Shown here piece after piece: positions 8,364 through 39,912 of a stretch of DNA of 55,795 nt. The notes under the pieces are model-generated. The model was given only the letters and a program-made list of their open reading frames with translations. It was not told the DNA's origin and did no database searches. Positions within the stretch are counted from its first letter, which is position 1. Every line of letters begins with the position of its first letter. The position numbers were made by a program, and so were the translations under genes. The stretch is from Candidatus Giovannonibacteria bacterium RIFCSPLOWO2_12_FULL_43_11c (lineage in GTDB: Bacteria; Patescibacteriota; Minisyncoccia; JACPKW01; UBA11713), in NCBI GenBank assembly GCA_001780775.1, contig MFIO01000008.1, positions 1-55,795 on the forward strand, in the 5' to 3' direction.

Positions 8364-9494
8364 ATGAAACGACCCACGCTTTGGGGAGCAATAATTGGGG
8401 GTGTAATAATTGCCGGTTCTGTTTATCAAGGAGCCAAAGTCCTCACCAATCCGACGGATCTGTTTTTGGTAAACATAGCTATCTTTGTACCAAATTTGTT
8501 AACGGTCGCTTTAGGCGTATTTTTAGTTGGCATTTATTTCAAAAGCAAGCAAAAAGAGGATGAAGGACAGGAGCCAATTAAATTTGCGCCAGATAGTCCC
8601 CAAGACATCGAATCTTTAGCAAAAAAGCGCAATTGGATAATTGGCTTTTTGCTTTTACTCGAAATTATTGGATCATCAGCAACTTGGATTCTGAACGACT
8701 ATGCAGCGGGATTTGCGCCCGTGAACATAAGCACCATTTTTGATGTATTGGTAAATATTTCCCTTCTTTACATCTCAATAGAATTGTTCAAAGGCAAGAG
8801 AAATGTTTTAAATCTTCTTTTTTATACCGCTATAGTTTACGCATTAGGCGCAGCCTTTGTTTATATCTGGCGCGAGCATTACTATGGCGGTGCAGTCAAC
8901 GTTTTATTTAATTTGTATATTATTTATGCAATCAAAGCCCCACTCAATCGGAAAAATTTCAGAATTGCTCACCTGGCATTTTTGCCTGTTTTTGTAATTT
9001 CATTATTTGCCGTTACCTACTTCGATAATGGGAATATTCCTGAATTAACAAAAAAAGAAATGTTGCTTGAACAGCAATTTTTGAATGATTCCAACACTTT
9101 GATTGGAACGTATCAGCTATATTTACAGAGAGAGGCCCCGGACGCAAGAGAAATTCAGGATGTTAAAGATGCAATAGAAAAGAGGGATAAAAAAAGTCAA
9201 GAGATAATTGATAACCTCCGCACCTTAAAGTCGGAGTATGAGAAGCAAATTTCCACCGTTGCCCAAAAAGAAACTTTTGAGCGCATAAAATATTTATTAG
9301 AAATGATGAATATACATCAAGCTCAGGCGCTGAAGGTTAAAGAGCTGATGGACTATTCCGAAAAAGTAAATTTTCGTAATTTATCGGACAAGCAAAAATC
9401 AGACATAAGCAATTTTAAAAAAGAAGTCGACGGCTATCTCACCCAACTTACTGACGTGCAATTCAAATTAGATAACTCAAATTTGAATTATTAG
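8364..9494 (+). CDS. hypothetical membrane protein with C-terminal coiled coil
   Basis: 376 aa with N-terminal TM helices and a charged heptad-like C-terminal third. Confidence 0.4.
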   Translation: MKRPTLWGAIIGGVIIAGSVYQGAKVLTNPTDLFLVNIAIFVPNLLTVALGVFLVGIYFKSKQKEDEGQEPIKFAPDSPQDIESLAKKRNWIIGFLLLLEIIGSSATWILNDYAAGFAPVNISTIFDVLVNISLLYISIELFKGKRNVLNLLFYTAIVYALGAAFVYIWREHYYGGAVNVLFNLYIIYAIKAPLNRKNFRIAHLAFLPVFVISLFAVTYFDNGNIPELTKKEMLLEQQFLNDSNTLIGTYQLYLQREAPDAREIQDVKDAIEKRDKKSQEIIDNLRTLKSEYEKQISTVAQKETFERIKYLLEMMNIHQAQALKVKELMDYSEKVNFRNLSDKQKSDISNFKKEVDGYLTQLTDVQFKLDNSNLNY

Positions 9495-9551: not shown

Positions 9552-9607
9552 GCTCCTGTACCAGTTCTTGGTCGTCAATGATGATGACCAAGAATCGGTA
9601 CAGGAGC
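9552..9607 (+). repeat. 56-nt near-perfect hairpin (about 26-bp stem, ATGA loop)
   Basis: GCTCCTGTACCAGTTCTTGGTCGTCA-ATGA-TGATGACCAAGAATCGGTACAGGAGC. It has one 2-nt internal mismatch and is flanked by smaller hairpins at 9519..9541 and 9616..9630. Confidence 0.6.
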
Positions 9608-9857: not shown

Positions 9858-11570
9858 ATGAAAAATAAGGAGATAGCGAAGATACTCTTTGAGCTTTCGG
9901 AACTATACGAAATGAAAAACGTGCCATTTAAGCCCCGGGCGCTCGAGCGCGCTTCGGAGACGATTGACTCGCTTACAGAAGATGTCATAGATATATATAA
10001 AGAAGGCGGAATTAAGGCGCTTGAAAATATTCCGGGCGTCGGCAGGGGGATTGCGGAAAGGATAGAAGAATATCTCAAGGCAGGCCGTATCAAAGAATAT
10101 GAAAATATGAAGAAAAAATTCCCGGTTGATATAGCCGGGCTTTCTTCGATTGAAGGGGTTGGACCTAAACTTATCAATCTTTTGTATACAAGATTAAAGA
10201 TAAGAACAGTTTTAGACCTGGAGAAAGCGGCGGAGGCAGGCAAATTGAAGGGGTTACCCAGAATGGGAGCGAAGCTTGAAGCGAAGATCCTAAAAGGCAT
10301 TGAATTTAAGCATGAGGGCGGAGGAAGGTTTGCCTTGGGCGAGGTTTTGCCCATGGCGCGAGAGATTAAGACAAGATTATTAAAAGTTAGGGGCGTTGAG
10401 ACGGTTGAAGTCGCGGGTTCCATCAGGCGGCGGCCTGAGACAATAGGCGACCTTGATTTTCTTGCGATATCGGAACATCCTGCTGCCGCCGCAGAATTTT
10501 TTGCGCGTATGCCAGAAGTTAGCCATGTTTACGGCCACGGGGAAACCAAGGTCCTCGTCAGGTTAAAATCTGGCATAGACGCCGATTTGATTATTTTGCC
10601 TAAAAAATCCTTTGGCGCGGCTCTACAATATTTTACGGGATCTAAAGATCACAACGTCGAGGTGCGGAAGCTTGCGATCAAAAAAGGATGGTCATTAAAC
10701 GAACACGGGCTAACGCGCGGCAAAAAAATGATAGCAAGCGAAACAGAAAAAGAAATTTATGAAAAACTCGGGATGGATTTTATCGAACCCGAGATGCGAA
10801 CGAACCGAGGAGAAATCGAAGCCGCACTCGCGCATAATTTGCCTAAACTCATCGGTTACGGAGATTTAAGAGGGGATTTGCAAGTTCAAACATCTTGGAC
10901 GGATGGCAAAAATTCAATTGAGGAGATGGCGCGGGAGGCTGAAAAATTTGGTCACGAATATATCGCGATAACGGATCATACGAAATTTTTGGCGATGACC
11001 GGTGGATCGGATAAGAAAAAACTTTTGCGCCAGATGGCGGAGATTGATAAGATTCAGAAAAAATTTCGCAAACTTAAAATTTTGAAAGGAGCAGAGGTGA
11101 ATATAATGCGCGATGGATCTCTCGATATTGATGACGAAACTTTAGCGAAGCTAGATGTCGTCGGGGCGGCGGTGCATTCGCTTTTTAATTTATCGCAGGA
11201 AGAGCAAACCGCGCGTATCATTAAAGCGATGGAAAATCCGAACGTTGATATTTTATTTCATCCGACTGGGCGCGTGATTAACAAGCGAAAGCCGTACGAA
11301 GTTGATATGGAAGCGATTATCAAGGCTGCGAAGCGCACTGGGACGATTTTAGAAATCGACGGGCATCCTTGGCGGCTCGATTTAAAAGATGAGCATATTC
11401 GTATGGCGCGCGAGGGCGGAGTGAAAATGGTTATTGATACCGATGCGCATTCTGTTTCCGAGATGAGTTATCTCGAATATGGCATCGCGCAAGCCAGGCG
11501 CGGGTGGTGTGAAAAAAAAGACATAATAAATACGTTGCCGCTTAAAGAATTTTTAAAGGCGTTAAAATAA
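9858..11570 (+). CDS. polX: family X DNA polymerase with C-terminal PHP domain
   Basis: 570 aa. Has HhH motifs (IPGVGRGIAERI, IEGVGPKL), the pol-beta catalytic GSIRRRPETIGDLDFL motif, and a PHP domain (ITDHT...DTDAH). Confidence 0.9.
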   Translation: MKNKEIAKILFELSELYEMKNVPFKPRALERASETIDSLTEDVIDIYKEGGIKALENIPGVGRGIAERIEEYLKAGRIKEYENMKKKFPVDIAGLSSIEGVGPKLINLLYTRLKIRTVLDLEKAAEAGKLKGLPRMGAKLEAKILKGIEFKHEGGGRFALGEVLPMAREIKTRLLKVRGVETVEVAGSIRRRPETIGDLDFLAISEHPAAAAEFFARMPEVSHVYGHGETKVLVRLKSGIDADLIILPKKSFGAALQYFTGSKDHNVEVRKLAIKKGWSLNEHGLTRGKKMIASETEKEIYEKLGMDFIEPEMRTNRGEIEAALAHNLPKLIGYGDLRGDLQVQTSWTDGKNSIEEMAREAEKFGHEYIAITDHTKFLAMTGGSDKKKLLRQMAEIDKIQKKFRKLKILKGAEVNIMRDGSLDIDDETLAKLDVVGAAVHSLFNLSQEEQTARIIKAMENPNVDILFHPTGRVINKRKPYEVDMEAIIKAAKRTGTILEIDGHPWRLDLKDEHIRMAREGGVKMVIDTDAHSVSEMSYLEYGIAQARRGWCEKKDIINTLPLKEFLKALK

Positions 11571-18659: not shown

Positions 18660-19202
18660 ATGTACTGGACTGGGAAAGGAGACGACGGTCGGACGAAATT
18701 ATTTAACTCGCCCGCCGGTTGCCGCATTCCAAAAAGCTCGCGGATAGTCGAAGCGCTGGGCTCGCTCGACGAGGTAAATTCTTATTTGGGGCTAGCGAAA
18801 GCACTCTCGAGGGAACAGAAATTGGATTTAGAATCTTTCGTAAATTTCTTGCAGGAGCAGCTTTTTATATTGCAAGCCGAACTCGCTGGAGCCGAGAAGA
18901 CTGTCTCCCGGGAATCGCTCGAGAAAATGGAATCCCAGCTCCACGTTTTTTCCGAAAAAATTCCCCCGATTAAATCTTTTTCCATCCCCGGCGGGACAGT
19001 TCTCTCCGCGCATTTTGACATCGCGCGGACGATGGCGAGGCGAGCAGAGAGGGAAGTAGTCGCGTTACGCGATGATAAAGAAAAAGCGCTTGGCGAGAAA
19101 AGCTACGCATTTTTGAATCGCCTATCTAGCGCGTGTTTCATTTTGGCGAGATATGTAAATTCGGTCCAAGGCGTCTCCGAAACCCCACCGAGTTATAACT
19201 AG
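18660..19202 (+). CDS. ATP:cob(I)alamin adenosyltransferase, PduO type
   Basis: 180 aa. Has the N-terminal YWTGKGDDGRTKL motif and an LQAELA helix. Starts 1 nt after the nrdJ stop. Confidence 0.85.
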   Translation: MYWTGKGDDGRTKLFNSPAGCRIPKSSRIVEALGSLDEVNSYLGLAKALSREQKLDLESFVNFLQEQLFILQAELAGAEKTVSRESLEKMESQLHVFSEKIPPIKSFSIPGGTVLSAHFDIARTMARRAEREVVALRDDKEKALGEKSYAFLNRLSSACFILARYVNSVQGVSETPPSYN

Positions 19203-19210
19203 GGAAAGTA

Positions 19211-19247
19211 GGATAGCTTGACAGGATAGCATAAAATATGCTATCTT
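19211..19247 (+). promoter_or_regulatory. putative sigma70-type promoter overlapped by a palindromic operator
   Basis: TTGACA (19218..19223), 18 nt, then TATCTT (19242..19247). A perfect 9-bp inverted repeat GATAGCATA-AAA-TATGCTATC (19225..19245) lies between them, with an extra GGATAGC half-site at 19211. Confidence 0.35.
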
Positions 19248-19398
19248 TATAGCGAAATATAGAGTTTTTTGATATTGGCTTTCCTTCCCCGCCCAACGTC
19301 AAATTTTGGTGTATGGCGGGGAGGGAAGGCTACGATTAGTAGCAGGTGCCTATAGTTGAGAGGCGCTATCCGGTCCCTCTCAAAAAAATTGGAGAACT

Positions 19399-19563
19399 AT
19401 GAAAATTCTCCGTGCTATAGGTTTTCTGCTTGCTATTCTTGGACTCAAATTCTTCTTGATGTGGACTGTGTTTCGCGCATTCGAGGGATCCTTGATCGCG
19501 CTCTTCACTACCTTCTCATCATTGATGAGTTCAGTCCAAACTACCCTCCCCGCGTCGTTTTAA
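19399..19563 (+). CDS. small hydrophobic protein (54 aa)
   Basis: GGAG lies 5-8 nt upstream of the ATG. Product: MKILRAIGFLLAILGLKFFLMWTVFRAFEGSLIALFTTFSSLMSSVQTTLPASF. It is below the 60-aa track cut-off. Confidence 0.35.
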   Translation: MKILRAIGFLLAILGLKFFLMWTVFRAFEGSLIALFTTFSSLMSSVQTTLPASF

Positions 19564-19582
19564 ACGATGCGGAACACAATGT

Positions 19583-19620
19583 GCCAGAGAGAATCTGACT
19601 TTAGTCAGACTCTCTCTGGC
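19583..19620 (+). terminator. 17-bp hairpin (one mismatch) after the small ORF
   Basis: GCCAGAGAGAATCTGAC-TTTA-GTCAGACTCTCTCTGGC. No clear U-tract follows. Confidence 0.35.
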
Positions 19621-19700
19621 TTCCTCTAAGTTAATTACTTCGATATATCGTAGTAGTTGGTTTGGAGGAAGTAAAATTTTGTTCTTTGGAAAGGAGAATT

Positions 19701-19985
19701 ATGAAGATAAATATAAACGGACTTTATCACGAGCAGATTGATGAGGACGGTCTTCAGGATCTGAAAGAGACTCTGCTGGAATATACTCTTCCGGTTCTGG
19801 AAATTACTTCACAAGAAAACGGAACTATTTCTGCGGAGGTGCCCGACGCCGTCGATATGAGAGAGATTACTGCTCCGCTGGCAACATTCGCAGAAGTTTT
19901 AGCTCGGCATTTCGCCAGAGATGTCTGGTTTGAACTCGAAGTTCCCAAGTGGGGCATTCGCTGCGATATCGCCGGCGCGGCTTAG
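19701..19985 (+). CDS. hypothetical acidic protein (94 aa)
   Basis: AAGGAGAATT precedes ATG 19701 (MKININGLYHEQIDEDG...). The track ORF starts further upstream, at 19662. Confidence 0.4.
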   Translation: MKININGLYHEQIDEDGLQDLKETLLEYTLPVLEITSQENGTISAEVPDAVDMREITAPLATFAEVLARHFARDVWFELEVPKWGIRCDIAGAA

Positions 19986-20034
19986 CAAAAAATACAACAC
20001 TTCAATCAAAAGAAAGGAGTTAAAAACAAAAAGT

Positions 20035-20070
20035 CTCGGTACAGAAATGTGGCCGAGTTCTTTTTATTTT
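20035..20070 (+). terminator. hairpin plus T-rich tail
   Basis: CTCGG-N13-CCGAG followed by TTCTTTTTATTTT. Confidence 0.4.
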
Positions 20071-20088
20071 CCTTCCGATTTCTAATTG

Positions 20089-20400
20089 TGGAGATGGCGG
20101 GAGTTGAACCCGCGTCGGGAAAGCTTTTGAGGGATGGTTGACAAGCTTAAGTGAAATCCTGAATTGACTCTCAGGAAAAAAGTTTTCTCGCTTATGACAC
20201 CCGCGATTCTTTAGCGAGAATCAAGGACGGATGGCCTAGATCCGAAGATCCAAGCGTTGCCATTAAGCTACTGCCAAAGCAGGCTCTCTGGTTCCAAATA
20301 AGTTTGCACTTATTATTTCCCATGGGAGATATTTAGCTCCGCCATGGCGGAGCGCCTGAACATCATCTCAAAGTTCTTCCCCTCGAGGCCTATCATCCCC
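20089..20400 (-). ncRNA. ssrA: tmRNA (SsrA), about 312 nt, CCA not encoded
   Basis: On the minus strand, the 5' GGGGATG pairs with the 3' CATCTCC (G3-U pair), followed by discriminator A. The T-arm is GCGGGTTCAACTCCCGC. Candidate tag ORF: GCA AAC TTA TTT GGA ACC AGA GAG CCT GCT TTG GCA GTA GCT TAA (ANLFGTREPALAVA). It lies directly downstream of smpB. Confidence 0.85.
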
Positions 20401-20875: not shown

Positions 20876-22342
20876 ATGCTTCGTGACGAATTGATAAAGG
20901 AAATTTCGAATGCCGTTGGCGAAGGTGTTGAAGTTAAACTTGTCGAGCCGGAAAGGGATGAGAACGGGGATTTTTCGACAAATGTTGCGTTTAAAGTCGG
21001 CAATGCAGAGGGCATGGCCGAGAAATTAAGGAAGAGCGAGTTAGTTAAAGAAGTAGTCGTAAAAAATAAATTTATAAATATTTTTCTGAAAGACGATATT
21101 TTAATTAAAGAGCTTGGTGAGAAATTAAAATTTGAGGAAAAAAATAAAAAAATAAACGTTGAGTTCGTTTCCGCAAATCCGACTGGACCGTTAACAATGG
21201 CCAACGGACGCGGGGGATTTTACGGCGATGCGCTATCGAATGTTTTAGAGAAAGTCGGATACGATGTAACGCGCGAATACTATATTAACGATGCGGGGAA
21301 TCAAGTGCGTTTACTCGGTGAATCAATTGAAGCCGTAGAGGGAAAGCGCGAAGTAAAAAATAAATATTACAAAGGAGAGTATATAAAAGATTTTGTTGGA
21401 AAATCCGGAGAAGAAGCGGTTCAATTTCTTTTGGGGGAAATAAAGAAATCTCTCGAGAGAGCCAGCATAAATTTTGATGTTTGGTTTTCGGAGAGAGTGC
21501 TTCGTGAAAAAAAAGAGCCGGAGAAAGTTTTAAAATTTTTGGAAGGCAAAAATTTAGTTGAGAAAAAAGATGGGGCAGTATGGCTCGGGGGCGCAGTACT
21601 AGTAAAGTCCGACGGGGAATATACTTATTTTTTGGCGGATCTCGCTTATCACTGGAATAAGTTTATTGAGAGAAAATTTGATATCGCGATCGATATTTGG
21701 GGAGCGGATCATCATGGATATGTCGAGCGTATGAAGAAAGGGGCGGAGGCGTTGGGAATTGGTCCGAAAAGATTAAAAATAATCATAATGCAGTTAGTAC
21801 GTTTAATCTCCGGAGGCAAAGAAGTCAAAATGTCCAAGCGCGCTGGCGAATTTGTCACGATGGATGAATTATTGGAACAGGTTGGCGTTGACGTGGCGCG
21901 GTGGTTTTTTCTCGAGCGTTCGCCCAATACCCATATGGATTTCGATTTAGATTTAGCCAGAGAGAAATCGGAGAAAAATCCGGTTTACTATGTCCAGTAC
22001 GCGCATACAAGAATGTCTAGCATCTTGGCAAAGTCCGGGAAGCTCGGCTTCCACTTGGAAGCCGAGCTTCCAAGTGCGTTTCTACATCCGGCGGAACGTT
22101 CACTCGCGCTGAAGATTTTGAGATTCCCGGAATTGCTCGAAGATATTTCAAAAGATTATCAAGTTCACCGGCTAACAACTTATGCTTATGAACTCGCGCA
22201 AACTTTCTCCGCTTTTTACCGCGATGTTAAAGTTATCGGCTCGGAACGGGAAGCCGAGCTTTTGTATTTTGTATCAAAAACCAAAGAAACCCTAGGAGAT
22301 GTCTTAAAAACTCTCGGCATCTCCCAACCGGAGAAGATGTAA
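20876..22342 (+). CDS. argS: arginine--tRNA ligase (short form)
   Basis: 488 aa. Has SANPTGPLTMANGRGG, KMSKRAGEFV and YAHTRMSSIL. Confidence 0.9.
   Translation: MLRDELIKEISNAVGEGVEVKLVEPERDENGDFSTNVAFKVGNAEGMAEKLRKSELVKEVVVKNKFINIFLKDDILIKELGEKLKFEEKNKKINVEFVSANPTGPLTMANGRGGFYGDALSNVLEKVGYDVTREYYINDAGNQVRLLGESIEAVEGKREVKNKYYKGEYIKDFVGKSGEEAVQFLLGEIKKSLERASINFDVWFSERVLREKKEPEKVLKFLEGKNLVEKKDGAVWLGGAVLVKSDGEYTYFLADLAYHWNKFIERKFDIAIDIWGADHHGYVERMKKGAEALGIGPKRLKIIIMQLVRLISGGKEVKMSKRAGEFVTMDELLEQVGVDVARWFFLERSPNTHMDFDLDLAREKSEKNPVYYVQYAHTRMSSILAKSGKLGFHLEAELPSAFLHPAERSLALKILRFPELLEDISKDYQVHRLTTYAYELAQTFSAFYRDVKVIGSEREAELLYFVSKTKETLGDVLKTLGISQPEKM
22038..22071. repeat. 34-nt perfect palindrome inside argS (family member 1)
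   Basis: GGAAGCTCGGCTTCC-ACTT-GGAAGCCGAGCTTCC, translated as GKLGFHLEAELP. Confidence 0.8.
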
Positions 22343-23125
22343 CTAGAGAATAATTTTTTCTGGCGCTATTTTGATATTCAAAAGATCCTTCGCAAACTTT
22401 GAAAATTTCTCGGGGTCGCCAGTGGTGATATAGCGCCTTAAGCCATTACTCCCAATGCGTTTTTTTATTTCAAGGTGGCGGGATAAATAATTTTCTAGCG
22501 ACACGGGAATTACTGAAGGAGAATCAAATATTTGGGCATCGGGCATTTCGCTTTGAATTATATTCTTGATAAGCGGGTAATGCGTGCAACCGAGAATGAT
22601 GTTTTTGATATTTTGTTTTTTAAACGGGTCGAGATATCTCCTTAAGGCTTCTTTCATAGCGCTATGATATATCATGCCAGCCTCAATTAATGGAACTAAT
22701 TTCGGAGCGGCCACTTGAAAAATTTTGGACATCGGATGTCCATATTTTTTGAGTTCGCGAAGATAAGCTCCGGATTCAACCGTAGCTTGAGTTGCAAGAA
22801 TGCCGATGGTTCCTTCAAGTGTCGCAACTTTTTTCGCAATAGGAATCAAAACCCCTAAGACTTTTTTATCGGGCAGAGCGTGCTGAATTTTTCGAAGCGC
22901 TTGCGAGGAGGCCGTGTTGCAGGCAAGAATTATTAACTCGCAGCCGTTTTTAAATAGCCAATCAACGGCTTGGCGCGTAAATTCGTAGATTTCTTGCGGC
23001 TCGCGCGATCCGTATGGGGTGCGGGCATTATCCCCGAAATATATAAAATCGTATTTCGGGAATTTTTCCGCGAGCGGCTTAAAAACCGTAAGCCCACCAT
23101 ATCCCGAATCAAAAACCCCGATCAT
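22343..23125 (-). CDS. murI: glutamate racemase
   Basis: GVFDSGYGGLTV, ILACNTAS, LGCTHYP. Confidence 0.9.
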   Translation of the reverse strand: MIGVFDSGYGGLTVFKPLAEKFPKYDFIYFGDNARTPYGSREPQEIYEFTRQAVDWLFKNGCELIILACNTASSQALRKIQHALPDKKVLGVLIPIAKKVATLEGTIGILATQATVESGAYLRELKKYGHPMSKIFQVAAPKLVPLIEAGMIYHSAMKEALRRYLDPFKKQNIKNIILGCTHYPLIKNIIQSEMPDAQIFDSPSVIPVSLENYLSRHLEIKKRIGSNGLRRYITTGDPEKFSKFAKDLLNIKIAPEKIIL

Positions 23126-23156
23126 GGCTTGATTATATCTCTATTTCGCATAATAT

Positions 23157-26100
23157 ATGATTATGGCCGATGAGAAAGGTCCAATGTATGAAAGCGTTTC
23201 TCCTCGATCCGAAGAGGAGATTCTTCGTTTTTGGAAAGAAAATAAAATATTTGAGAAGTCTTTAGAAAATCGCCAAAAGGCGAAAACTTTTGTCTTTTTT
23301 GAGGGGCCGCCTTACGCGAACGGCCTTCCCGGAATCCACCACGTAGAATCCAGATCGTTCAAAGACATCATTTTACGCTACAAAACCATGCGCGGATTTT
23401 TCGTGCCAAGGCGCGCCGGATGGGATACGCATGGACTTCCGACAGAAATGGCAGTTGAGAAAGCACTTGGGATAAAATCCAAAAAAGAAATTGAGGAAAA
23501 GATAGGCGTTGAAAAATTTGTCGAGGAGGCGAAGAAAAATGTTTTCACATTTATAGACGCTTGGGAGAAATTAACTGATCGCATGGCTTATTGGCTCGAT
23601 TTGAAAAATGCCTATGTGACCATGACCAACGACTATATAGAATCTCTTTGGGCCGTCATCTCAAAAATTTCCGAGAAAAAATTGCTTTATGAAGATTATA
23701 AAGTTCTTCCGTGGTGCCCGCGCTGCGGAACATCGCTTTCTTCGCACGAGTTGGCGCAGGGGTACCAGAAAGTAAAAGAAAATTCGATTTATGTTAAGTT
23801 CCAACTTGAGGGCGATAAATCGCAAAATCAGCGGGTAAGTTTTTTAGTCTGGACGACAACCCCTTGGACGCTTCCGGGGAATGTCGCACTCGCTATCAAT
23901 CCGAAAATTGATTACGTGACAGTAGAGCGCTCTGGGAACCCGGATGAGTGGCTGATTTTGGCAGAGGCACGTTTGGACGTGGTTGAAGGAGAGTATAAAA
24001 TTATCAATCGCGAAAAAGGCGCGGCGCTTGTTGGGACGAAATATAAAGCTTTATATTCTAATTCTTCTGCAACGGAAAATAGTTATCGCGTTATCGCAGC
24101 CAGTTTTGTGGGAGCGGAGGACGGCTCGGGCATAGTTCATATAGCGCCTGCATTTGGGGGAGATGACTTGGCGGTTGGCAAAAAGGAAAAGTTGCCTACG
24201 CTCGTGACTGTATCAGAAGAGGGAAAAATGAAAACTCCTGGCGCAGTATGGGATGGAAAATTTATTAAAGATGCCGACTTGCTTATAATTGAAGATTTAA
24301 AAAAACGTTTGCTTTTATTCAAAATCGAGCCATATGAACACGATTATCCTTTTTGCTGGCGGTGCGGCACGGCTTTGATGTACTACGCGAAGACTTCATG
24401 GTTTTTCAAGACTACGGCCGTCCGCGACCATATGCTAAGAGAGAACGCCAAAATCGATTGGCACCCGGAATATTTGCGGGACGGCCGTTTCGGTAGTTGG
24501 CTCAAGGAAAATGTCGATTGGGGAATTTCTCGCGAGCGCTATTGGGGAACGCCGTTACCGGTATGGCGGTGCGATCAATGCGAGAAGATTAAGGTAGCAG
24601 GTTCGCTCAAAGAATTAGACAATCTCGATCTGCATCCAACTGAATTGATTGTGATGCGGCATGGCGAGGTTCCGCACAATATTAAGGACACTACCAATCC
24701 AGTTGATCCGGAAAAAGATGAAAAAGAGACTTTAACAGAGAAGGGCAAGGCAGATGTGAGAGAGGCTGCCAAAAAATTAAAGAAAGAAAAGATTAATTTG
24801 ATTTTTTCTTCCCCTTCGCATCGAGCGAGGGAAACCGCAAGTATTATTGCCGAAGAGCTTGGCTTGCCGGAATCAGTAATCGCCGTCGTACCCGAACTTT
24901 ATGATGTTCTTGTCGGCGGATTTGAAGGCGTTCCGATTAATGAATATGAAAAAGCTTTCTCGAGTTTTGAGGCGCATTTTACGGAAAAACCGAAAGGCGC
25001 TGAAAATTTTAGGGAGATTCGCTCAAGGATGATTAAAGCAGTGATCAAATTAAGGCGCAATTACGCAGGCAAAAAGATTTTGATAATAAGCCACGGGCAT
25101 CCGACATGGATTTTGATGGCGGCGCTTGAAAGTTTTGACGAAAAAGATTATCTGAAGTCGCCGTATTTGAACCCTGGGGAGTTTAAAAAAATTAATTTGC
25201 ACAACTGGCCGTATAATTCGGCGGGCGAACTTGATTTACATAAGCCATATATTGATGAAATAAAATTGAAATGTGAAAAATGTGCGGGCGAGATGGCGCG
25301 CGTGAAAGAGGTTATGGATGTCTGGTTTGACTCCGGCGCCATGCCGTTTGCGTCGCAGTGTTTTGGAAGTTCGACTTCCAAGGGGAAGTCGAACTTCCTC
25401 TATCCGGCCGAATATATTGCTGAAGCTATCGATCAGACCCGCGGGTGGTTTTATACGCTTCTCTCCGTATCGGCGCTATTGGGATTTGAGTCATCATACA
25501 AACGCGTTTTATCGCTTGGCTTGGTGCTTGATGGAAAAGGCGAGAAAATGTCGAAATCCAAAGGAAATGTCGTTGATCCGGAGACTCTTATGGAAAAATA
25601 CGGAGCAGACGCGGTGCGCTGGTATTTCTATACTATCAATCAGCCTTGGGACGACAAGCTTTTTCGCGAGAAAGACATCCAAGATGCCCAGCGCCGCTTT
25701 CTTATGATTCTATGGAATTCGTATCTTTATTGGCGCACGTACAGGGAAGTTCGACTTCCTATTGGAAGTCGAACTTCTAAGCCGAAACTCGTAATCAATA
25801 AGTGGCTTTTGGCGAAGTGGAATAAAATTTTATCAGAAGTTTCTGAAAATCTTGAAAAATATGATATCGTCTCTGCGGCGAGAAAGTTGGAAAATTTTGT
25901 CGTTGAAGATTTATCGCACTGGTATATCAGGCGGATCCGCGAGCATATGAAGCATGAAAAATCTGACGCGGCAAAAGAATGTTCCGCCACGCTCGGCTTC
26001 GTTCTTTTAGAGCTATCAAAAACATTAGCACCTTTTACGCCATTTATCTCCGAAGGAATTTATCGCGGAATTAGCGGAGAGAAAGAAAGCGTTCATCTTG

Positions 26101-26660
26101 AGGATTTCCCCGCCTTCGCCAAGGCTTCGGCGAGCAAGCCTGAAAAGAAATTAATAGAAGAAATGGAGAAAACGCGCGAGATAGTTTCAAGAGGCCTTGA
26201 GGCGCGGCAAAAGGCAGGAATTAAAATTCGCCAACCTCTTTCAGAGTTGAAAATTAAAAATAAACTTGATAACGAATTACTAGAACTAATAAAAGGCGAG
26301 GTCAACGTTAAAAAAGTTTCGGTCGCGAAAGATTTGAAAGAGGAAGTCGAGCTTGATACGGAAATTACTAATGAGCTTCAAGAAGAGGGGCTAGTCCGCG
26401 AATTTATTCGGGCTGTGCAGGATTTCAGGAAGGAGTTGAAATTAACTCCGCAGGAGAAAGTGGAGTTGGCGGTCAAATCTTCGAAAGAGTTTGAAAAAAT
26501 TCTAAAAGAGCATAAATCTTTAATAGAGAAAGAAATAAATATTTCCAATCTTTTTTTCGGAGATTTAGGCGATTCGCGCACAAAGGAAATCTTGATTGAT
26601 AAAACTAAAGCCGAGATTGGAATCAATCATACTCACCATATGAAAATCGAAAATGAATAG
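23157..26660 (+). CDS. ileS: isoleucine--tRNA ligase with an inserted histidine-phosphatase domain
   Basis: 1167 aa. Has PYANGLPGIHH (HIGH-like), KMSKSKGN, DQTRGWFY and a CP1 editing region. An extra RHG...SHG domain sits at about 24633..25226. Confidence 0.95.
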   Translation: MIMADEKGPMYESVSPRSEEEILRFWKENKIFEKSLENRQKAKTFVFFEGPPYANGLPGIHHVESRSFKDIILRYKTMRGFFVPRRAGWDTHGLPTEMAVEKALGIKSKKEIEEKIGVEKFVEEAKKNVFTFIDAWEKLTDRMAYWLDLKNAYVTMTNDYIESLWAVISKISEKKLLYEDYKVLPWCPRCGTSLSSHELAQGYQKVKENSIYVKFQLEGDKSQNQRVSFLVWTTTPWTLPGNVALAINPKIDYVTVERSGNPDEWLILAEARLDVVEGEYKIINREKGAALVGTKYKALYSNSSATENSYRVIAASFVGAEDGSGIVHIAPAFGGDDLAVGKKEKLPTLVTVSEEGKMKTPGAVWDGKFIKDADLLIIEDLKKRLLLFKIEPYEHDYPFCWRCGTALMYYAKTSWFFKTTAVRDHMLRENAKIDWHPEYLRDGRFGSWLKENVDWGISRERYWGTPLPVWRCDQCEKIKVAGSLKELDNLDLHPTELIVMRHGEVPHNIKDTTNPVDPEKDEKETLTEKGKADVREAAKKLKKEKINLIFSSPSHRARETASIIAEELGLPESVIAVVPELYDVLVGGFEGVPINEYEKAFSSFEAHFTEKPKGAENFREIRSRMIKAVIKLRRNYAGKKILIISHGHPTWILMAALESFDEKDYLKSPYLNPGEFKKINLHNWPYNSAGELDLHKPYIDEIKLKCEKCAGEMARVKEVMDVWFDSGAMPFASQCFGSSTSKGKSNFLYPAEYIAEAIDQTRGWFYTLLSVSALLGFESSYKRVLSLGLVLDGKGEKMSKSKGNVVDPETLMEKYGADAVRWYFYTINQPWDDKLFREKDIQDAQRRFLMILWNSYLYWRTYREVRLPIGSRTSKPKLVINKWLLAKWNKILSEVSENLEKYDIVSAARKLENFVVEDLSHWYIRRIREHMKHEKSDAAKECSATLGFVLLELSKTLAPFTPFISEGIYRGISGEKESVHLEDFPAFAKASASKPEKKLIEEMEKTREIVSRGLEARQKAGIKIRQPLSELKIKNKLDNELLELIKGEVNVKKVSVAKDLKEEVELDTEITNELQEEGLVREFIRAVQDFRKELKLTPQEKVELAVKSSKEFEKILKEHKSLIEKEINISNLFFGDLGDSRTKEILIDKTKAEIGINHTHHMKIENE
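25365..25398. repeat. 34-nt perfect palindrome inside ileS (family member 2)
   Basis: GGAAGTTCGACTTCC-AAGG-GGAAGTCGAACTTCC, translated as GSSTSKGKSNF. Confidence 0.8.
25745..25778. repeat. 34-nt palindrome inside ileS (family member 3)
   Basis: GGAAGTTCGACTTCC-TATT-GGAAGTCGAACTTCT, translated as (R)EVRLPIGSRTS. Confidence 0.8.
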
Positions 26661-38352: not shown

Positions 38353-39221
38353 AATTATTTGATGTCCATACGCATGTCCAGTTCGCGGCTTTCCGCGATG
38401 ATGCCAAAACGGTTATTTTGCGCGCTCTTGAGGCTGGAGTCTGGATGATTAACGTAGGCACTCAAAAAGATACTTCCGAAGCCGCGATAAAAATAGCGCA
38501 TGAATACAAGGAAGGGATATATGCGACTGTCGGTTTGCACCCCATTCATACTTCAAGGTCTTATCACGATGAACAAGAAATTGGTGCCGCTTCCGAAGGG
38601 AGCGAGCCTCGCCTCGACGGTTTCTGGTCGAGGCGGGAAGAATTTGATTACAATGAATATAAAAAACTCGCGCTAGATGAGAAAGTTATCGCGATTGGGG
38701 AGTGCGGATTGGATTATTACAGGCTCGAAGAGGATACGAAAAAAAAACAGGAAAGAATTTTTATAAAACAAATTGAGCTTTCGCGCGACACAAAAAAACC
38801 CCTCATGATACATTGCCGCGAAGCCTTCGGCGACCTGATTAATATTCTGAATTCTTATCATTCCTCATTGATCCCGAGGCCTGGAGTGGTTCATTTTTTT
38901 TCCGGAGATAAAGAGGAAGCAAAGAAACTCATGGATTTCGGCTTTTTATTTTCCTTCGGCGGCGTTCTCACGTTTACGCGCGACTACGAAGACGTCGTAA
39001 AATATATTCCGCTCGAGCAAATTTTACTCGAAACCGACGCGCCGTATGTCGCTCCCGTGCCGTATCGCGGAAAACGCAACGAACCGAGTTATGTAATTGA
39101 AGTCGCAAAGAAAATTGCAGAAATAAAAAGCTTGAGCTTGGAACAGGCTGCCGAAATTACTTTCCAAAATGCACAGAAGATTTTCCAACTTGGTAGCTTA
39201 GCTACCAAGTTGCTAGAATAG
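38349..39221 (+). CDS. tatD: TatD-family metal-dependent hydrolase
   Basis: FDVHTHVQ, AIGECGLDY, IHCREA, ETDAPY. The last 11 codons are encoded by a REP-like palindrome. Confidence 0.85.
   Translation: MKLFDVHTHVQFAAFRDDAKTVILRALEAGVWMINVGTQKDTSEAAIKIAHEYKEGIYATVGLHPIHTSRSYHDEQEIGAASEGSEPRLDGFWSRREEFDYNEYKKLALDEKVIAIGECGLDYYRLEEDTKKKQERIFIKQIELSRDTKKPLMIHCREAFGDLINILNSYHSSLIPRPGVVHFFSGDKEEAKKLMDFGFLFSFGGVLTFTRDYEDVVKYIPLEQILLETDAPYVAPVPYRGKRNEPSYVIEVAKKIAEIKSLSLEQAAEITFQNAQKIFQLGSLATKLLE
39186..39212. repeat. REP-like palindrome, copy 1
   Basis: CAACTTGGTAGC-TTA-GCTACCAAGTTG with perfect 12-bp arms. It lies inside the 3' end of tatD. Confidence 0.8.
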
Positions 39222-39225
39222 AAGT

Positions 39226-39882
39226 ATGAGAGGGATAAAATTTTCAAACGAAGAATTTTATCATATTTATAACCGCGGAGTTGATAAGCGGGAGATTTTT
39301 CTTGAGGGATATGATTTGAATAGGTTTTTTCAAAGCATGGATGAATTTAACACTCTCGAACCCATCGGAAGTATTTATGAAAAATCTTTTCTTAATTTAT
39401 CGCAATTTAAAGATTCTGATGAGAAATTGGTAAGATTTATCTGTTATTGCCTAAATCCAAACCACTATCATTTTATACTTCAGCAAGTTTCAGACCGAGG
39501 AATTGAAAAATTTATGCATCGTCTATCTGGAGGATACACAAGATATTTTAATGAAAAGTATAGGCGCACGGGATCTTTGTTTCAGGGCGCTTATAAGGCG
39601 ATCCATATAGATTCAAACGAATATCTTCTGCATCTGAGCGCCTACGTGAATTTAAATAACCATGCTCACCAACTTGGTAGCTCGGCTACCAAGTCAAGTT
39701 GGGCAGAATATATCGGGACGGACAACGCGCATACATTTTGTAGCAAGAAAATTATTTTAGATCAATTCCAAAATCCCAGAGAATACGAAGAATTTGCCAA
39801 GGAATCCTTGAAGAATATCTTAGAGAAAAAGAGAATGGCAACTGAACTCGAGAGATATATTTTGGAGGCGGATAGATTTTGA
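39226..39882 (+). CDS. Y1 (HUH) transposase, REP-associated tyrosine transposase (RAYT)/IS200-like
   Basis: 218 aa. Has YHIYNRGVDKREIF, the HUH motif NPNHYHFIL, GSLFQGAYKAIHI and LSAYVNLN. Confidence 0.8.
   Translation: MRGIKFSNEEFYHIYNRGVDKREIFLEGYDLNRFFQSMDEFNTLEPIGSIYEKSFLNLSQFKDSDEKLVRFICYCLNPNHYHFILQQVSDRGIEKFMHRLSGGYTRYFNEKYRRTGSLFQGAYKAIHIDSNEYLLHLSAYVNLNNHAHQLGSSATKSSWAEYIGTDNAHTFCSKKIILDQFQNPREYEEFAKESLKNILEKKRMATELERYILEADRF
39670..39694. repeat. REP-like palindrome, copy 2 (inside the RAYT ORF)
   Basis: CAACTTGGTAGC-TCG-GCTACCAAGT, translated as QLGSSATK. Confidence 0.7.
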
Positions 39883-39888
39883 GCTATA

Positions 39889-39912
39889 AACTTGGTAGCT
39901 TAGCTACCAAAT
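39889..39912. repeat. REP-like palindrome, copy 3
   Basis: AACTTGGTAGC-TTA-GCTACCAAAT. It overlaps the stop and last codons of the minus-strand ORF 39900..40685. Confidence 0.75.

Follow-up and report, generated by a model that had tools for sequence, protein, structure and literature searches.

The palindromes described here lie in a 55,795-nucleotide (nt) stretch of DNA from Candidatus Giovannonibacteria bacterium RIFCSPLOWO2_12_FULL_43_11c (contig MFIO01000008.1, assembly GCA_001780775.1), which as a whole is called the window. Three 34-nt copies occur inside the genes of two aminoacyl-tRNA synthetases, one in argS and two in ileS, and they are probably the non-autonomous partner of a Patescibacteria-specific system of the kind formed by repetitive extragenic palindromes (REPs), their inverted doublets (REPINs) and REP-associated tyrosine transposases (RAYTs), the hairpins being cognate to a single-copy Y1 transposase. 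A sequence-only reading of the same DNA had proposed a new family; the family is not an orphan, its hairpin being the cognate of a RAYT-like Y1 transposase that the window itself encodes.

Inverted doublets in argS and ileS

The argS copy occupies positions 22038-22071 (GGAAGCTCGGCTTCC-ACTT-GGAAGCCGAGCTTCC, GGAAGC-TCG/CGA type) of the open reading frame (ORF) 20876-22342, and the two ileS copies are located in the ORF 23157-26660 at 25365-25398 (site 1, GGAAGTTCGACTTCC-AAGG-GGAAGTCGAACTTCC, GGAAGT-TCG/CGA type) and at 25745-25778 (site 2, GGAAGT type, loop TATT), no strand being assigned to any of them. The sequence-only reading had given these positions and sequences exactly and had described three perfect palindromes with the same geometry of a 15-nt arm, a 4-nt loop and a 15-nt arm; the doublet layout is indeed common to the three, with the correction that the argS stem really has 16 base pairs (bp) and a 2-nt loop, and perfection holds for argS and ileS site 1, while site 2 ends in T and is left with 14 perfect pairs. 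Folded as single-stranded DNA, the 34-mers form hairpins of 14-16 bp with energies from -16 to -19.3 kcal/mol (z -5.7 to -7.0). The argS and ileS arms differ at positions 6 and 10, and both changes are compensated between the arms, as the earlier reading had noticed; they are compensated also inside each arm, since each 15-nt arm is itself nearly palindromic (GGAAGY-NNN-RCTTCC). A palindromic repeat family preserved as a hairpin through compensated changes is thus established.

The 34-mer had been taken as the basic element and is really an inverted doublet of a hairpin of 21-25 nt, CTTGG-N11-CCAAG. The family unit can be written as (CA)CTTGG-N4-N(1-3)-N4'-CCAAG(TG), and the 34-mers correspond to two cores in inverted orientation, 4 nt apart. 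In particular, the complete single unit at the argS site is located at 22052-22076 (CACTTGGAAGCCGAGCTTCCAAGTG) and the 15 nt upstream of it are an additional inverted arm. A target-site duplication, suggested by AAGTCCG and AAGTGCG around the argS copy, was rejected because AAGT is the hairpin foot and the other copies have no flanking repeat.

Further copies, whose absence would have refuted the earlier reading by its own terms, are found both in the window, with four more units, and in a scan of genomes, with at least 116 doublets. A perfect-palindrome scan of the window detects three more single units that share their foot with the 34-mers and have a different inner stem, all at the transposase gene discussed below. 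The fourth, at 22718-22750 (TTTGGACAT-C-GATGTCCATA, strand not assigned), is a decayed single unit of GGACAT type that is read in frame within the gene of an Asp/Glu racemase (minus strand, 22343-23125). The 55.8 kb of the window therefore hold 7 loci, or one in about every 8 kb, and several stem types (GGAAG, GGTAGC and GGACAT) are present together in one genome. An intergenic hairpin at 9552-9607, between the ORFs 8364-9494 and 9858-11570, has 26-nt arms that are 88% complementary and a 4-nt loop; it contains CTTGG...CCAAG, is otherwise unlike the family and may be a terminator.

All three 34-mers are translated, as had been noted: they begin at codon positions 2 (argS), 1 (ileS site 1) and 3 (ileS site 2), and the element is free of stops in every frame. 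The encoded peptides are GKLGFHLEAELPS in arginyl-tRNA synthetase (ArgRS, residues 388-400), GSSTSKGKSNF in isoleucyl-tRNA synthetase (IleRS, residues 737-747) at site 1 and EVRLPIGSRTS (IleRS residues 864-874) at site 2. The occurrence of one copy per reading frame, which the earlier reading had emphasized, is a coincidence of three copies, given that one frame takes 61 of 100 coding copies, the window's own three being counted among them. Chance, an assembly artefact or a repeat at the protein level could be considered only for the smallness of the original sample, which was three, and together have a negligible probability: a degenerate pattern covering the three 34-mers finds no match in 100 dinucleotide-preserving shuffles of the window, the elements recur across numerous assemblies made independently of one another and across four different metagenome runs, and a protein-level motif was discarded because the three frames give three different peptides.

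The location in loops or linkers that had been proposed holds for the three copies, the argS copy being placed in a modelled coil and both IleRS sites aligning with variable segments. In the AlphaFold model of ArgRS, with a mean predicted local distance difference test (pLDDT) of 93.2, residues 388-400 are in the coil 387-404 between the helices 369-386 and 405-427, where the pLDDT falls to 73-85; this is the variable linker that joins the catalytic and anticodon-binding domains. The site 2 of ileS belongs to a variable loop preceding the D/N-[KR]-W-L helix of the anticodon-binding domain, and the site 1 copy replaces the usually conserved segment HYPFENKExF.

A RAYT-like transposase gene with matching hairpins

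The gene at 39226-39882 (plus strand) encodes a RAYT-like Y1 (HUH) tyrosine transposase of 218 amino acids (aa), which is recognized by Pfam Y1_Tnp with 34.3 bits at a cut-off of 23 and has as its top NCBIfam model the REP-associated tyrosine transposase REP_Tyr_transpos (NF047646). The HUH motif NHYHF corresponds to residues 79-83; H80, H82 and Y140 (in AYVNLN) are invariant in an alignment of 43 sequences consisting of the window protein and its homologues, and Tyr140 is presumed to be the catalytic tyrosine. The Y1 fold is established by comparison of structures: the closest match of the AlphaFold model (pLDDT 80) is 4ER8_A (E 4.6e-5, template modelling score 0.62 on the target), which is the E. 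coli RAYT with a bound REP hairpin, and the matches ranked after it are IS608, ISDra2 and IS200 transposases (2VJV, 2XM3 and others).

Units of the family flank the gene at -16 and +9 nt, and a third copy is in frame within it. The upstream unit (39186-39212, plus strand, CAACTTGGTAGCT-T-AGCTACCAAGTTG) has a perfect 13-bp stem and overlaps the 3' end of a TatD ORF; the downstream unit (39891-39911, plus strand, CTTGGTAGCT-T-AGCTACCAAA) starts 9 nt past the stop codon and shares its stem and its centre base with the upstream one. The internal unit, named site B (39672-39694, ACTTGGTAGC-TCG-GCTACCAAGT, without assigned strand), encodes LGSSATK directly after the catalytic-Tyr motif and forms, in the AlphaFold model, the coil that follows the Tyr helix.

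This link between hairpins and transposase is established across the protein family, which counts 4830 homologues at E<=1e-10, many of them from Patescibacteria and some named RayT by JGI. The loci examined were 80 metagenomic ones together with the window, L047, L120 (the complete Giovannonibacteria genome CP066687.1), L122 and L123, in which 68 transposase genes were recognized. Units are present in or adjoining 53 of the 68 genes, with one on each side in 37, and in 35 of these 37 two-sided loci the 4-nt inner stem is identical on both sides. Between loci about 20 stem types occur (GGAAGC, GGAAGT, GGAAAC, GGAGGC, GGACAT, GGGGAC, GGCGGT, GGCAAC and others), which differ by compensated changes around a constant foot CTTGG/CCAAG; the GGAAG type is found at eight transposase loci (L120, L131, L132, L135, L150, L160, L179 and L191). 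Typically 15 nt separate the end of the upstream unit from the ATG, and the downstream unit begins 1-26 nt past the stop codon.

The transposase genes also carry in-frame internal copies at about residue 60 and about residue 150. The motif LG-x-x-x-[ST]-K follows the catalytic-Tyr motif in nearly all of the 120 homologues listed (P0121-P0240), is often repeated at about residue 60 and is an in-frame copy of each locus's own hairpin; in fact, its residues 3 and 5 covary as reverse-complement codons, in the pairs S-A, S-T, N-V, H-M, D-V and G-A.

At most loci the upstream unit supplies a -35-like TTGGNN, followed by TGnTAtAAT and then by about 6 nt to the ATG. A promoter scan of the window finds the corresponding sigma-70-like arrangement at 39190-39219 (TTGGTA, 18 nt, TAGAAT with TG), which ends 6 nt before the ATG and whose TTGGTA is part of the upstream hairpin. 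The sequence thus suggests a leaderless transcript and a promoter that overlaps the enzyme's own putative binding site, an overlap by which the transposase could regulate its own expression.

Depth and sequence context were derived from metagenome runs stored as contigs, depth being counted as word depth over contigs. In two runs the transposase gene has a depth of 23-27x compared with 22-26x for its flanks, and the proportion is the same in two others; this agreement with the flanks in all four metagenome runs shows that the genome holds one copy of the gene. Over two segments of the gene, 39529-39569 and 39731-39778, the word depth rises to 2-3 times that of the remainder and other contigs diverge, which reflects motifs conserved with other transposase homologues in the community. 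In two related genomes (L122-L126) the transposase gene has pilB (T2SSE) on one side and pilC (T2SSF) on the other, both type IV pilus genes, a conserved position that suggests vertical inheritance.

Dispersal of the doublets and history of their sites

The pattern GGAAG-N5-CTTCC-N4-GGAAG-N5-CTTCC, searched in one genome per species, identifies at least 116 doublet loci, mostly in Patescibacteria; among the matches listed, named Patescibacteria lineages account for 59 of 80 loci with titles, and the lineages include Giovannoni-, Sacchari-, Kaiser-, Lipton-, Yanofsky-, Nomura-, Vogel- and Sungbacteria and others. The same pattern has no match in 2.9 million viral contigs, so that there is no sign of a phage vector. 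Of the 116 loci, 12 were left out because they were non-Patescibacteria or probable chance matches, and covariation was analysed in the other 104 doublets. Pairing between the arms at their five free inner positions reaches 92.7%, compared with 41.8% after shuffling (maximum 52.5% in 2000 shuffles), and 50 distinct inner combinations occur, which establishes the covariation of the hairpin. Perfect inverted repeats are 80 of the 104 and perfect direct repeats 4; a direct tandem repeat of a 19-nt palindrome was ruled out, the centre base being complementary in 93 doublets and identical in 8. The commonest loops are ACTT or AAGT and the commonest flanks ACTT...AAGT, so that many copies are 42-nt palindromes.

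Some doublets (L052 at 4055, L053 at 6643, L090 at 3470, and also L093, L057 and L038) lie within a longer palindrome, at or before the N-termini of unrelated proteins, namely a release factor, a DUF5671 protein, SAICAR synthetase and a GFO/IDH oxidoreductase; the outer flanks are near-identical (GCATCAATATGG ... NNACATTGA), and these copies look like a longer composite variant of the element. Two Nomurabacteria orthologues, L013 and L045, differ only by an inverted 4-nt loop, AAGT in one and ACTT in the other.

Among the matches listed, 97 of 116 doublets (84%) are in open frames of at least 150 aa. A Pfam scan of 92 of the host ORFs matched 118 families, which indicates that they are real housekeeping genes; among the families are class I tRNA synthetases, the GatA amidase, TsaD, MiaA, ribosomal protein L3, GyrB, DnaG, NAD-ligase, EF-Tu-type GTPases, ATP synthase gamma and the PHP domain of DNA polymerase III. 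For 100 coding copies, which include the three of the window and in which orthologous copies are counted separately and are not independent events, the frame giving (L)E-x-x-LP-x-GS-x-x-S is used 61 times, that giving GS-x-TS-x-GK-x-x-F 24 times and that giving GK-x-x-F-x-x-E-x-x-LP 15 times.

Stable and compensated stems in transcribed regions are also what elements acting at the level of mRNA would show, such as processing sites, stabilisers or translational pauses, the link to the transposase being then secondary. This explanation is very unlikely. Stem mismatches comprise 9 G-T on the sense strand and 11 A-C, and the lack of an excess of G-T points to a structure kept at the DNA level and not in mRNA; moreover, the copies are not placed consistently with respect to the start or the end of their genes, identical units are found on both sides of the transposase gene and in both orientations, and an Rfam scan of the whole window finds the tmRNA and one tRNA only, the hairpins being covered by no known RNA family.

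Patescibacteria carry competence genes, and short motifs concentrated in genes, with a frame bias of 61/24/15, an unchanged net length at the occupied loops and lineage-specific "dialects" at orthologous sites, would also be expected of DNA uptake sequences, which accumulate as a competence signal through biased uptake and recombination like the uptake signal sequences (USS) of Haemophilus and the DNA uptake sequences (DUS) of Neisseria. These have a density of roughly 1 per kb, well above the value of about 1 per 8 kb of the window. An uptake signal is made a highly improbable explanation also by the conservation of structure rather than sequence, with 50 compensated inner variants, by the coexistence of several stem types in one genome, and by the linkage of the motif to, and its embedding in, a Y1 transposase gene with matching stems.

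Dispersal is indicated by the metagenomes of the source type, in which the argS copy has a word depth about 10 times that of its flanks. The exact argS 34-mer is present in at least five contigs with unrelated flanks, the similarity stopping at 22038 and at 22072/22073. Contig "joints" that might be read as evidence of excision were rejected, as they are short-contig cross-matches among related community members.

The comparison of orthologous sites gives a different picture of length from the one first proposed. The sequence-only reading had regarded the copies as net inserts of 11-12 aa; alignment with orthologues shows instead that they occupy variable loops whose length has stayed close to the ancestral one. 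With respect to Thermus thermophilus IleRS (1ILE), which was compared for the two loops together with about 100 other type-2 sequences, mostly partial proteins, site 1 is longer by 1 aa and site 2 shorter by 2 aa. The close ArgRS relatives P0002, P0003, P0007 and P0019 (DNA: L118, L119) have at the argS site a single unit encoding NLEA-x-LPS, and the 15 nt that the window argS has in addition are the second, inverted arm; the ArgRS of L117, which is 80% identical and has no recognisable unit, is equal in length to the relatives with a unit. In the distant ArgRS P0050, P0089 and P0093 doublets occur at the same site in another frame (RKSDF-x-RKSDF), and the TsaD loop carries the doublet in three different frames in L075, L011 and L007.

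The stems found at these sites are specific to each genome. At ileS site 1, L119 lacks 33 nt and the copy of L117 is decayed but unchanged in length. Other compensated stems occupy this site in L023, L037, L100, L072 and L118; GGAAGT-CCG/CGG with the AAGG loop of the window is found in four genomes other than L118, and one metagenome contig variant has a GGTGGC-type doublet. At ileS site 2, L118 has a single unit of GGAAAC type, and in L117 and L119 no unit can be recognised. In L118 the stem is GGAAAC-TCG-GTTTCC at both ileS sites and the one-base variant GGACAC-TCG-GTTTCC at the argS site. The racemase site, compared at the same codon positions, is occupied by TGGACATCCGATGTCCA in the window and by TGTTGAACATCCGATGTTCAACA in L117 (within about 8456-9247, minus strand) and is empty in L118; the core of the two is the same and the foot differs, that of L117 matching a palindrome which adjoins a more distant transposase in L025.

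Several observations weigh against a REP/REPIN-RAYT system as the explanation of the 34-mers. The copies show no net gain in length, unlike the products of simple transposition, and genome-specific stems at orthologous sites would require repeated re-insertion or a conversion step; in data that consist of contigs, no transposition event or filled/empty polymorphism was seen. The protein scores 25.5 bits with NF047646, below the cut-off of 80, and belongs to a distinct clade; searches of PDB with the single sequence and with a profile gave no match, the fold comparison alone being successful. The GTAG/CGTC tag is absent, the flanks of 47 upstream and 38 downstream units consisting of the stem extension CA...TG followed by the promoter, and the flanking units, whose orientation is readable only from a centre of 1-3 nt, are direct at 24 loci and inverted at 13. 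Finally, the window transposase carries units of GGTAGC type and not the GGAAG type of the doublets, and the available 55.8 kb of the genome contain no cognate transposase gene of GGAAG type; the GGAAG doublets are presumably relics or depend on a second transposase gene, located outside the sequenced stretch of the genome seen here.

In a REP/REPIN-RAYT system, which we consider the probable explanation, the single-copy Y1/HUH transposase would act like E. coli TnpA-REP and the TnpA of IS200/IS605 and recognise the hairpin in its folded, single-stranded form. In fact, E. coli TnpA-REP and IS608 TnpA recognise a folded single-stranded hairpin, cleave it at the foot and transfer strands (PMC3479197, PMC8266576, PMC3597680), and it is from these enzymes that we infer catalysis on the Patescibacteria hairpins. 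The transposase would cut the foot and rejoin the strands, so that units or doublets would be copied to new places, and resident copies would be recombined with one another and so be kept perfect and matched to the enzyme. In genomes with almost no intergenic space the survivors would be stop-free, in frame and located in surface loops or linkers, whose length would afterwards be trimmed back towards the original size. The copies may have spread by either of two routes, which the data do not rank: recurrent insertion in permissive loops followed by trimming, or conversion between resident copies.

There is a small chance that the hairpins are instead rewritten in place, the transposase cutting and rejoining resident copies against a master copy and converting fixed sites to the current stem. 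The in-frame LG-x-x-x-SK copy after the catalytic tyrosine would be the master, or would couple the sequence of the enzyme to its target. Such a process would explain the absence of net length change, the presence of the same genome-specific stem at unrelated sites and the universal internal copy; if it takes place, protein and target change together, self-referentially.

A domesticated system without transposition, in which the copies are fixed DNA sites useful to the host, for example in chromosome structuring, replication or repair, and arise in place by cleavage and rejoining or by conversion while the RAYT-like protein keeps them matched, is unlikely. The unchanged length at the IleRS sites, the equal length of ArgRS relatives with and without a unit, the occupation of the same sites across species with genome-specific stems (all three of GGAAAC type in L118, and with different feet at the racemase site) and the single copy of the transposase are in agreement with it, and RAYTs have been argued to behave like housekeeping genes (Bertels et al. 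2017, PMC5581495). However, identical 34-mers are present in at least five unrelated contexts in one community, the TsaD site with its three frames in three genomes looks like the result of independent arrivals, lengths do change (a 15-nt arm gained in argS, about 33 nt present or absent in ileS), and a host function is indicated by no result.

Two other features of the window were recorded. The IleRS, of 1167 aa, contains an embedded histidine-phosphatase domain (RHGE...SHGH; Pfam His_Phos_1) at 24645-25103, corresponding to residues ~497-650, between the zinc motifs CDQC (24570) and CEKC (25272); it is kept in three syntenic relatives and is an unusual insertion for an aminoacyl-tRNA synthetase. 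The region 19200-20090, of about 0.9 kb, adjoins the tmRNA gene (20086-20400, minus strand), has as its sole ORF 19662-19985 (107 aa) and contains strong hairpins at 19278-19330 and 19583-19620, with no Rfam match.

Significance and comparison with known systems

REP and RAYT have so far been studied almost only in Proteobacteria, as extragenic DNA, while thousands of homologues span the Patescibacteria, whose genomes are tiny and gene-dense and whose hairpins are for the most part placed within essential genes and translated with them. Alignments, phylogenies and gene calling can be misled by the resulting variation, which is systematic, has remained unannotated and affects the sequences of tRNA synthetases, ribosomal protein L3, gyrase, primase, ligase and translation factors. 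In addition, the strict covariation of gene and hairpin, the copies inside the transposase gene and the genome-specific stems bear on the joint persistence of REP populations and single-copy transposases. REP-RAYT systems, their co-evolution and REPIN doublets are already known, as are intragenic in-frame REPs, including those of tRNA synthetases (PMC3733652). Within the literature searched, in which nothing links RAYTs, REPs or IS200 with Patescibacteria, the candidate phyla radiation (CPR) or Saccharibacteria, the following are new as far as shown: a Patescibacteria-wide clade with its own foot and no GTAG/CGTC tag, very short doublets and mainly intragenic copies in essential genes, in-frame cognate copies at conserved positions of the transposase gene, and genome-specific stems at orthologous sites.

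Perfect inverted repeats in coding sequence, with both arms translated, have been described in Nematomorpha mitochondria (PMC6649704); unlike the Patescibacteria hairpins, they reach 284 bp, are mitochondrial and have neither an associated enzyme nor a dispersed family. The USS and DUS of Pasteurellaceae and Neisseriaceae are also short in-gene motifs with preferred frames, weakly constrained segments and lineage-specific variants; they are fixed sequences without a linked transposase, whereas the Patescibacteria element is a structure with variable stem tied to a transposase gene.

The sequence-only reading had compared the palindromes to the Rickettsia palindromic elements (RPEs). The comparison is right for what concerns the in-frame translation of palindromes in loops of protein genes and fails for net insertion: in both cases the hosts are housekeeping genes, including tRNA synthetases, of a reduced genome whose loops tolerate the element, but elements of the RPE-1 type have 100-150 bp and add residues, whereas those described here have 21-34 nt and no net gain. 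Host lineage and sequence are also different, and a cognate transposase gene is evident in the Patescibacteria. Di Nocera et al. 2013 (PMC3733652) equated small intragenic RPEs with REPs and described intragenic REPs in tRNA synthetases of other bacteria.

IS200/IS605 elements and palindrome-associated miniatures have in common with the Patescibacteria system the Y1 fold, an expected action on single-stranded DNA and a gene with hairpins on both sides, which appear to point more often in one direction than in opposite ones. In contrast, the unit formed by the gene and its ends is not multicopy here, its depth being equal to that of single-copy flanks; the closest fold match is a RAYT and not IS608 TnpA, and the dispersed copies are bare hairpins rather than gene-length elements.

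The REP/REPIN-RAYT systems of Proteobacteria (PMC2817692, PMC3116915, PMC3479197, PMC8266576) differ from the Patescibacteria system in several features. The foot CACTTGG/CCAAGTG takes the place of the GTAG/CGTC tag, the doublets measure just 34 nt, of which the spacer takes 4 nt, 84% of the listed doublets are inside long ORFs whereas classical REPs are extragenic, the transposase gene holds one or two in-frame copies at fixed positions, the window protein falls under the NCBIfam RAYT cut-off, and the host lineage is Patescibacteria; flanking REPs are inverted in the description of Nunvar 2010 (PMC2817692) and, judged from the centre of 1-3 nt, appear mostly direct in Patescibacteria. On the other hand, a second group of REPs consists of perfect palindromes (Corneloup 2021, PMC8266576), as do the Patescibacteria hairpins, and RAYTs are single copy per genome (PMC5581495), as is the window transposase. 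In both systems a single-copy Y1/HUH transposase is flanked by cognate palindromes, enzyme and hairpin co-vary, several types per genome are possible, and the hairpins are dispersed as singlets and as inverted doublets that fold into a longer hairpin, the REPIN.

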